This document shows positions 29,701 to 30,316 of a stretch of DNA of 64,000 bases, in pieces. Position numbers and translations under genes: made by a program. Location: assembly GCA_964016885.1 (NCBI GenBank), contig OZ024745.1:13702001-13766000 (forward strand), written 5' to 3'. Below the pieces are notes generated by a model. That model did no database searches, was not told the DNA's origin, and worked only from the letters and a program-made list of their open reading frames with translations. How positions within the stretch are numbered: the first letter of the stretch is position 1; every line of letters begins with the position of its first letter. The DNA comes from Eledone cirrhosa (Eukaryota).

Positions 29701-30316
29701 TACCAGGATACATACGAGGTATCTGTCATCGCTCTACATATCTTCAGGAGTTTAGATATTGTTTGCAGTTTGAACAGTATTACACACACACACACACACA
29801 CACACACACACACACACACACACACACACACATATATATATATATATATATATCATCAGCCACTCCCACATACCTTTCACCTTTGACCTCAGGGTTCAGT
29901 CGTGAAAAGGATAAGATCGCATATCTTTTTACATTCCTGTAATATATTTCCGAATGTTTAATCAAATATATATATATATATATATATATATATATATATA
30001 ATATATATATATATATATATATATATACATGTTTTGTGTATAACCAATCAGAAATATAGTCGATCCTCAACTGAATGATCACTCAATACAAACAAGTAGA
30101 ATTCTTGCAAGTCTTTTAGTATAAGTTTGATAACAGTGATTGATACGATTCTTAATCGATGTCTAAATTTGACTTTTTGTTATATATTCACAGGGAGAAG
30201 ATGTGAAAGAAACGAAACGATGGGTTGAACACTTGAAGAGGTTAAGTCGAAACTTGGGCGTATTTTGGAGACGTCGAAACGCTCTTCCAGACATTAACAG
30301 CAACAGCAAAGGATAG
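20573..30316 (+). CDS. Multi-exon RhoGEF gene (C4 Zn-finger-like motif + DH + PH-like domain), 10 coding exons, about 418 aa; first exon(s) uncertain
   Basis: Exons 20573-20743, 21515-21667, 22085-22168, 22846-22991, 23781-23895, 24407-24496, 25182-25340, 27101-27214, 27963-28064 and 30194-30316 all have AG/GT ends and join in one open frame to TAG at 30314-16. DH hallmarks: [47 protein letters not shown] terminal helix: [11 protein letters not shown]. Confidence 0.93.
21515..21667 (+). CDS. RhoGEF exon (DH)
   Basis: tctcag|GAG...AAG|gtaagg, 153 nt; [51 protein letters not shown]. Confidence 0.93.
22085..22168 (+). CDS. RhoGEF exon (DH)
   Basis: tttacag|GAA...CAG|gttcgt, 84 nt; [28 protein letters not shown]. 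Confidence 0.92.
22209..22780. repeat. Intronic compound minisatellite
   Basis: Alternating tctcaccccacactatatata / tctcactcccacactttatcta units fill the intron. Confidence 0.9.
22846..22991 (+). CDS. RhoGEF exon (DH)
   Basis: ccactag|TGT...ATG AA|gtaagt, 146 nt, phase 2 end; [48 protein letters not shown](K). Not in the ORF track. Confidence 0.93.
23781..23895 (+). CDS. RhoGEF exon (end of DH)
   Basis: tcgtcag|A TAT...GCT|gtaagt, 115 nt; (K)[38 protein letters not shown]. Confidence 0.93.
24407..24496 (+). CDS. RhoGEF exon (DH-PH linker, contains RRHS)
   Basis: tttcag|AAA...AAG|gtaaat, 90 nt; [30 protein letters not shown]. Confidence 0.88.
25182..25340 (+). CDS. RhoGEF exon (PH-like)
   Basis: ttttcag|ACT...GAG|gtatgt, 159 nt; [53 protein letters not shown]. 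Confidence 0.88.
25606..25641 (+). ncRNA. Minimal Penelope-type hammerhead motif in a RhoGEF intron
   Basis: TCTT CTGATGA A GGAC TAGC GTCC GAAACGTT AAGA: 4-bp stem I, 4-bp stem II, loopless palindromic stem III (AACGTT), the minimal type described for Penelope-like elements. Confidence 0.6.
25733..26616. repeat. (TA)n tract with recurrent GC interruptions
   Basis: tatatagctatata motif recurring every 18-80 bp over about 880 bp. Confidence 0.95.
27101..27214 (+). CDS. RhoGEF exon (PH-like)
   Basis: cttccag|CCT...AGG|gtaagt, 114 nt; [38 protein letters not shown]. Confidence 0.88.
27963..28064 (+). CDS. RhoGEF exon (PH-like)
   Basis: ttatcag|GAA...AAG|gtaaac, 102 nt; [34 protein letters not shown]. 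Confidence 0.9.
28584..29242. mobile_element. 616-bp unit with 43-bp terminal direct repeat between (TA)n tracts; solo terminus at 12377-12419
   Basis: ttagaaagatcgagtatcgaaaaatcggcgcacgagttcacga identical at 28584, 29200 and 12377. Confidence 0.75.
30194..30316 (+). CDS. RhoGEF last coding exon (PH terminal helix + PKI-like tail)
   Basis: tcacag|GGA...[43 protein letters not shown]. Followed by over 1.5 kb of non-repetitive AT-rich sequence consistent with a 3' UTR. Confidence 0.9.
   Translation, partial: GEDVKETKRWVEHLKRLSRNLGVFWRRRNALPDINSNSKG

Follow-up and report, generated by a model that had tools for sequence, protein, structure and literature searches.

A C-terminal PKI-like motif in a RhoGEF64C-family protein of Eledone cirrhosa, a candidate pseudosubstrate of PKA-C

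Known PKA-C inhibitors and the tail of a cephalopod RhoGEF

Only a handful of proteins, namely PKI, the regulatory subunits, ARHGAP36 and Smoothened, are known to inhibit the PKA catalytic subunit (PKA-C) through a decoy site. AKAP13 (AKAP-Lbc), a RhoGEF that is tied to PKA and whose DH domain is among the PDB matches of the family profile used here, anchors the holoenzyme via the regulatory subunit and is not a pseudosubstrate of the catalytic subunit. PKI-beta contains the sequence GRRNALPDI, and PKI-alpha has Asp-Ile at P+3/P+4 (counting from the phospho-acceptor position, P0). PKI (PF02827; PDB 1ATP, 3WYG) is a small stand-alone protein that carries R-R-N-A-hydrophobic-x-[D/N]-I at P-3 to P+4, together with an Arg at P-6 and a helix bearing Phe at P-11. 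ARHGAP36 is a GAP-family protein with an embedded N-terminal R-R-x-A-hydrophobic motif, which inhibits PKA-C and also drives its degradation (PMC5059767). The PKI-like motif of Smoothened is embedded, weaker and without an Arg at P-6; it relies on a Trp at P-13, borne by a helix of its own, is helped by membrane avidity, and binds PKA-C at about 0.8-0.9 uM, approximately 1000-fold weaker than PKI (10.1101/2021.07.05.451193; PMC13186710). Among the regulatory subunits, RI-alpha has four Arg before G-A-I (10.1101/2023.11.08.566240), and RII-beta has a Phe (F107) at P-5 that packs on F129/R133 (PMC13186710).

Here we describe a stretch of 64,000 nucleotides from the cephalopod Eledone cirrhosa (GCA_964016885.1, contig OZ024745.1, positions 13,702,001 to 13,766,000 of the forward strand), referred to below as the window. 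A preliminary description of this DNA had proposed that a RhoGEF encoded here ends, right after the terminal helix of its PH domain, in a PKI-type pseudosubstrate of PKA. The exon sequence and a spliced contig both bear out this placement: RRNALPDI occupies exactly 30272-30295 in frame +2, and its exon runs from the PH terminal helix through the motif and six further residues to a TAG stop at 30314-30316. The tail comprises the following features.

30194..30316, plus strand: last coding exon (AG acceptor, TAG stop, spliced contig of run X4, modelled helix 390-407)
30254..30271, plus strand: lead-in L-G-x-aromatic-(W/R)-R that connects the PH helix with the motif (P-9 to P-4; L in 19/20 homologues, G in 18/20, aromatic P-6 in 19/20)
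30272..30295, plus strand: pseudosubstrate-like motif RRNALPDI, P-3 to P+4, with the P0 Ala at 30281-30283 (sequence; R, R, N and I, that is both core Arg, the Asn and the P+4 Ile, invariant in 20/20 non-redundant homologues)

Counts out of 20, here and below, refer to alignment A3 after removal of 6 of its 26 rows at >=85% identity; mean identity over the PH domain plus tail is 43%. The published consensus of PKA-C inhibitors is R-R-X-(A/G)-hydrophobic (PMC5059767), and Arg at P-3, Arg at P-2, Ala or Gly at P0 and a hydrophobic residue at P+1 are each found in 20/20 tails. The likeness to PKI extends outside this minimal consensus, as the family consensus shares 7/9 residues over P-3 to P+5 with the PKI encoded by the same genome (L017, G000:C1:304874694-304874828; Pfam PKI E 1.8e-14, 54.2 bits), the Asn at P+3 and the Ile at P+4 among them. 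The window motif itself agrees with this PKI and with PKI-alpha at 6/9 positions each.

The designation "PKI-type" holds from P-3 to P+5 but not upstream. PKI's Arg at P-6 and its aromatic residue at P-11 are each present in 0/20 tails, and an aromatic residue at P-13 in 1/20; the window sequence has a Phe at P-6 and a Trp at P-5, out of register with PKI as remarked in the preliminary description, and the helix that lies upstream is the PH domain's. This upstream part is more like RI, with a basic run from P-5 to P-2 in 14/20 tails, or, in cephalopods, like RII-beta, with Trp as the aromatic residue at P-5. Whereas RI-alpha and RII-beta have cAMP-binding domains, the RhoGEF tail is without them and would thus not be released by cAMP. 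ARHGAP36 is also a member of a Rho-regulator family, but the protein described here is a GEF, with a C-terminal motif of putative inhibitory function, and where Smoothened uses its P-13 Trp, the tails described here have a conserved aromatic residue at P-6. Since Smoothened binds without an Arg at P-6, the missing Arg predicts a moderate affinity and not the loss of binding.

Membership in the PKI family (PF02827) was considered and rejected, as the last-exon peptide lies below the Pfam PKI cut-off (14.3 versus 25 bits, E 0.05), has neither the P-6 Arg nor the P-11 aromatic residue, and forms the end of a 427-aa DH-PH protein instead of a small independent inhibitor. A PKI profile run against the genome did not list the tail among its matches, the last exon retrieved no PKI chain from the PDB by sequence (2 weak unrelated matches), and a search of the genome with the pattern of the RI inhibitor site found nothing. 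The genome's PKA-C gene (L012) has two versions of the catalytic-loop exon, at 4541-5230 and 9152-9364 on the minus strand, which are probably mutually exclusive.

Gene structure and membership in the RhoGEF64C family

Eleven exons between 1237 and 30316, all with GT-AG introns, join in silico into one open DH-PH frame of 427 aa. The product is 97% identical (414/426) to an Octopus bimaculoides protein and 96% identical to an O. vulgaris protein, both of which have the same tail. The exons preceding the last one are listed below.

1237..1263, plus strand: exon 1, first coding exon (9 codons) of a short form (matches Octopus N-termini, GT donor; predicted splice)
20573..20743, plus strand: exon 2, beginning of the DH domain, preceded by a CxxC...CxxC segment (sequence and homology)
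21515..21667, plus strand: exon 3, DH domain (Pfam RhoGEF E 4e-4)
22085..22168, plus strand: exon 4, DH domain (tblastn)
22846..22991, plus strand: exon 5, DH domain, catalytic conserved region (Pfam RhoGEF E 1.3e-6)
23781..23895, plus strand: exon 6, end of the DH domain (Pfam RhoGEF E 2.7e-6)
24407..24496, plus strand: exon 7, basic linker between DH and PH, with RRHS at 24458-24469 as a candidate PKA phospho-site (sequence)
25182..25340, plus strand: exon 8, start of the PH domain (homology and predicted structure)
27101..27214, plus strand: exon 9, PH domain (homology)
27963..28064, plus strand: exon 10, PH domain, donor joined to the last exon (homology and spliced contig)

Evidence for a spliced transcript through the motif exon is modest. 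One 784-nt contig from run X4 (depth 4.3), a public run of unrecorded library type, skips 28065-30193, a GT..AG intron of 2129 bases, and covers the motif without difference; the junction supported by this contig is that of exon 10 with the last exon. The genomic run X1 covers that intron and has no such joint, and a search for RNA data sets with the last exon listed none.

A search of the window with 9 long homologues gave no long N-terminal exon. Other molluscs have both short forms and long forms of 900-1800 aa, and several molluscan short forms, whose N-terminus corresponds to exon 1 of the window, begin Met-Gly, a putative site of N-myristoylation. The CxxC...CxxC segment (20573-20660), directly before the DH domain, is present in many homologues and gives weak zinc-finger matches (E about 0.05). 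The basic DH-PH linker holds a [RK][RK]x[ST] site in 16/20 homologues and a strict RRx[ST] site in 7/20, and these are candidate PKA phospho-sites in a linker that is R/K-rich anyway.

By sequence comparison, the gene belongs to the RhoGEF64C family. Its protein (P0001) matches Pfam RhoGEF at E 2.3e-39 and PH_13 at E 1.8e-5, the latter just below the cut-off, and the best Foldseek matches to the predicted fold are DH-PH structures. The mite protein KPM11944.1 (614 aa), which is among 24 homologues of the whole protein (E 4.4e-61, 42% identity over 422 aligned residues) and carries the motif, appears as the GEF64C member KPM11944 in Table S3 of Fort and Blangy (PMC5499878). The database name of the Octopus proteins, NET1/ARHGEF3, was rejected as an identity: the family profile aligns to NET1 and ARHGEF3 over the DH region alone (E 8e-30), behind intersectin (E 3e-38), and NET1 is absent from the 24 whole-protein matches at E 1e-20 or better, in a search that sees word-sharing relatives only. 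In the ESM Atlas, the nearest entries are chordate RhoGEF clusters at 0.94 and 0.92 (the latter si:dkey-91i10.2), with nothing >=0.9 for the PH domain plus tail.

A tree built without the motif, with no outgroup and with the fly sequence left out, roughly tracks the species tree and makes a cephalopod duplication visible. The second RhoGEF64C copy of the genome lies on the same contig on the opposite strand (G000:C5:79996439-80022633; L013, L014, L016) and ends in RRNAVPDI, with Val at P+1, the motif being retained in both copies of the duplication. In two O. bimaculoides models of the paralogue (P0184, P0185) the last exon is missing. The longest branch of the tree belongs to L021 (104-1198), a divergent family member of 33% identity that is uninterrupted and has an intact motif.

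The GEF64C family is reported from sponges, cnidarians, protostomes and vertebrates, including fish, birds and marsupials, with losses in placental mammals, nematodes and flatworms (PMC5499878). The Drosophila member, also a DH-PH RhoGEF, has a form of 1984 aa as compared with 427 aa in octopus, where the gene is duplicated. It activates Rho and promotes midline axon crossing (PMC2199320), shows axon-guidance and cell-shape phenotypes (PMC2199320; PMC9231607), and has an EMS allele in which a C-terminal missense change abolishes the gain-of-function phenotype (PMC2199320). The available text of PMC2199320 mentions no tail motif or PKA link for the fly protein, and that of PMC5499878 has 0 mentions of PKA. 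The catalytic DH region is conserved, with a score of up to 0.97 in the alignment of homologues, and Rho exchange activity, as shown for the fly protein, is presumed for the octopus protein.

Conservation and predicted structure of the tail

In a whole-protein search, R-R-N-[A/G]-[L/V/M]-x-[N/D]-I was found near the C-terminus in 22 of 24 homologues, which include cephalopods, gastropods, bivalves, a chiton, a brachiopod, a spider, a mite and a crinoid; the 2 homologues without it are models that stop short of the site. Thus, the motif that had been described as a feature of the window gene is present in it but is not peculiar to it, being a family-wide trait of RhoGEF64C in molluscs, arthropods and an echinoderm among the homologues found. 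The site lies just past the PH domain, 9-18 residues from the C-terminus across the family. It is also present in 23 of 33 further cluster members, and the 10 without it are fragments or models ending before the last exon. Metagenomes yielded 143 pattern matches, 32 confirmed relatives and 30 loci with the same tail; these 30 were picked by the motif itself and are excluded from all conservation counts, and they indicate no more than that further animals have this tail.

Within residues 255-426, positions 413-420 form the best-conserved window of 8 columns (score 0.89); the PH core scores 0.54, the PH helix 0.52 and the stretch that follows the motif 0.38. Among 23 DNA versions, from loci chosen by the motif, each core Arg position is encoded by every one of the six Arg codons, which indicates that the constraint acts on the protein. 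The preliminary description proposed to test whether orthologues keep the motif, with Ala and never Ser/Thr at P0, while the flanks drift. The motif is indeed kept, P0 is Ala in 18/20 tails and Gly in 2/20, and the flanks do drift, but the "never Ser/Thr" part is weak, as it comes from 2 substitutions only and the chance of both being non-Ser/Thr is ~0.24 (Ser/Thr make up 29/57 substitutions at other Ala columns).

Strings that fit the loose form R-R-x-A/G-hydrophobic occur often, and in an unconstrained tail such a likeness could arise by chance. In the window's six frames there are 25 matches to R-R-x-[AG]-hydrophobic, 11 of them from one tandem repeat, and the full pattern R-R-N-[AG]-hydrophobic-x-[DN]-I occurs a single time, at the motif itself. 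From family composition, a tail of 25 residues would contain the loose pattern in ~0.3% of cases, and the cross-phylum conservation is the stronger argument. Its persistence across protostomes and an echinoderm while its neighbours drift refutes chance as far as constraint is concerned, and we give this explanation next to no credence.

A conserved element directly after the PH helix of a RhoGEF also calls to mind p63RhoGEF, whose C-terminal PH extension, a G-alpha-q effector element, sits in just that place; the conserved Ala-Leu pair and a possible helix-turn-helix would fit such a role. G-alpha-q effectors of the p63RhoGEF/PLC-beta type are defined by ALXXPI (PMC7599897), however, and this string is found in 0/20 tails, nor is the invariant Arg-Arg part of it, which makes a G-alpha-q element very improbable. 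A PDZ-binding end or a CAAX box was likewise found in none of the 20 tails.

The preliminary description also raised the question of whether the motif is buried in the PH fold. In a monomer model of the O. vulgaris protein, the PH helix spans 390-407 and is followed by a short strand at 409-412, and residues 413-426 have pLDDT <50; given the end of the helix at 407 and the low pLDDT of the motif residues, the core motif would lie outside the PH fold, whereas the lead-in may be partly structural, given the strand. A model of a spider PH domain plus tail differs in that a helix at 197-216 (pLDDT about 57-66) runs across the whole motif, the spider P+2 being Ala, and a pseudosubstrate role would require this predicted helix to unwind.

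These models bear on another reading, in which a Leu-Gly turn leads from the PH helix into a basic, amphipathic tail helix with a non-kinase partner, be it acidic membrane lipids, calmodulin, an import receptor or, in autoinhibition, the DH/PH surface of the protein itself, and the likeness to PKI is coincidental. The spider helix and the octopus strand are in its favour, as are the four consecutive basic residues in 14/20 tails and the conservation of a P-6 Trp, of Leu-Gly at P-9/P-8 and of hydrophobic residues at P+4 to P+6, all outside the minimal kinase consensus. Yet Pro at P+2 in 16/20 tails and Gly at P0 in 2/20 disfavor one continuous helix, the modelled spider helix is of low confidence, and the core Arg are never Lys and the Asn is never changed, a strictness unneeded for plain charge or membrane binding. 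We regard a non-kinase helix as rather unlikely, though as an explanation to be taken seriously.

We favor instead an interaction with PKA-C, for which the complex model suggested in the preliminary description has now been made. The O. bimaculoides PKA-C was modelled with the PH domain plus tail (255-426) of the RhoGEF of the same species, ATP and Mg; compared with the window, the last exon of that RhoGEF has one residue changed, which lies outside the motif. The tail docked in the active site with a score of 0.70 (runs 0.69, 0.70 and 0.77), as compared with 0.01 for the best of 3 controls, and the runs share >=43% of contacts, with a partner pLDDT of 71-75. The mark used for such scores is reached by 51/78 solved versus 2/108 mismatched microbial pairs and, in eukaryotes, by 39/65 solved pairs without an older like complex versus 2/126 unrelated pairs, in a calibration that holds no peptides or disordered chains.

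The modelled register is canonical, and almost every confident contact involves the tail: the Ala lies with D166/G200/T201, the P-2 Arg with E170/E203 and the Leu with L198/P202/L205 (PKA-C numbering by offset from the catalytic Asp). Also listed as contacts are 405 and the lead-in residues 409-411 on the RhoGEF side and R133, G234, Y235, F239 and D241 on the kinase side, and we infer that the former face the latter in the model. The confident contacts do not include E127 and E230, which are known to pair with the two Arg; in the model these pairings are uncertain. There are 164 PDB entries that hold PKI(5-24), and the pass of the complex model may be a memory of PKA-PKI structures; it shows that the tail fits the PKI pose while still joined to the PH domain, and does not speak to binding or to the identity of the kinase.

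The tail might then be a pseudosubstrate or docking site for some other basophilic kinase, such as PRKX, PKG or an Akt/SGK/ROCK-type enzyme, given that the complex-model pass does not discriminate among family members. Three further loci of the genome have the same activation-loop pattern and read, from their exons, as one PRKX-like and two PKG-like kinases. Akt/SGK/ROCK-type kinases prefer Arg at P-5 and P-3, and the basic residues at P-5 (16/20 tails) and P-4 (18/20) would suit such kinases. PKC-type sites have a basic residue at P+2, which is found in 0/20 tails. In addition, the cephalopod Trp at P-5 breaks R-x-R, and the closest match among the sequences compared, out to P+4, is the PKA-specific PKI; on these grounds we judge another kinase to be improbable.

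A possible link between Rho activation and PKA

On the whole, we are inclined to regard the tail of the RhoGEF64C family as a likely moderate-affinity pseudosubstrate of PKA-C, outside the PKI family, on the strength of its conserved sequence pattern and the complex model. The two Arg would occupy the acidic substrate groove, with the Ala facing the catalytic Asp and the next hydrophobic residue in the P+1 pocket, and the residues around the P-6 aromatic would touch the kinase near the alphaF-alphaG residues used by PKI's helix. By analogy with the values measured for Smoothened, the affinity might be moderate, in the high nM to uM range. Without the P-6 Arg and the P-11 Phe, and hence with moderate affinity, capture of free PKA-C by the GEF would be limited to sites of high concentration at the membrane. 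At such sites the tail would inhibit PKA at the same time as the DH domain charges Rho with GTP. PKA antagonises Rho, and a local block of this kind would free Rho from that restraint where it is being activated. The wiring might also be the reverse, with the binding of PKA-C tuning the GEF.

As a more tentative proposal, which we would not count on, RhoGEF64C proteins could be ancient, animal-wide Rho activators with a built-in PKA inhibitor. They would turn Rho on and PKA off at one spot, as a mirror of ARHGAP36, by means of a PH-anchored decoy in which the P-6 aromatic replaces PKI's helix. If so, this might be a reason why GEF64C-driven Rho signalling attracts rather than repels axons, and this form of PKA control would have been lost in placental mammals. 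A RhoGEF with a PKA-C decoy would directly connect the activation of Rho with signalling by cAMP, two pathways that in general act against one another.

In agreement with the preliminary description, which knew of no RhoGEF with such a motif, none was found in the papers searched. In this largely open-access body of literature, supplementary interaction screens aside, RhoGEF64C with Pka-C1 gave no paper and the motif strings nothing relevant, and the titles and abstract openings of the matches listed for GEF64C, alone or with PKA or cAMP, contained no link. A RhoGEF with a C-terminal PKA-C decoy thus appears likely to be new, while the pseudosubstrate principle itself is known from PKI, ARHGAP36 and Smoothened.

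The window also holds mobile and repetitive elements. Fragments at 11211-11919 and 42422-43204, which we take to be Tc1/mariner transposase-like, gave no Pfam hit at E 0.001 in the three frames tested. The reverse-transcriptase frame of a non-LTR retrotransposon is found at 51698-52936 (Pfam RVT_1 E 8.5e-25), and 56195-56548, which has no Pfam hit, presumably resembles the endonuclease of the same element. The tandem repeat mentioned above lies at 49225-49675, has a period of 45 bases, and carries its 11 pattern matches evenly spaced on the minus strand.
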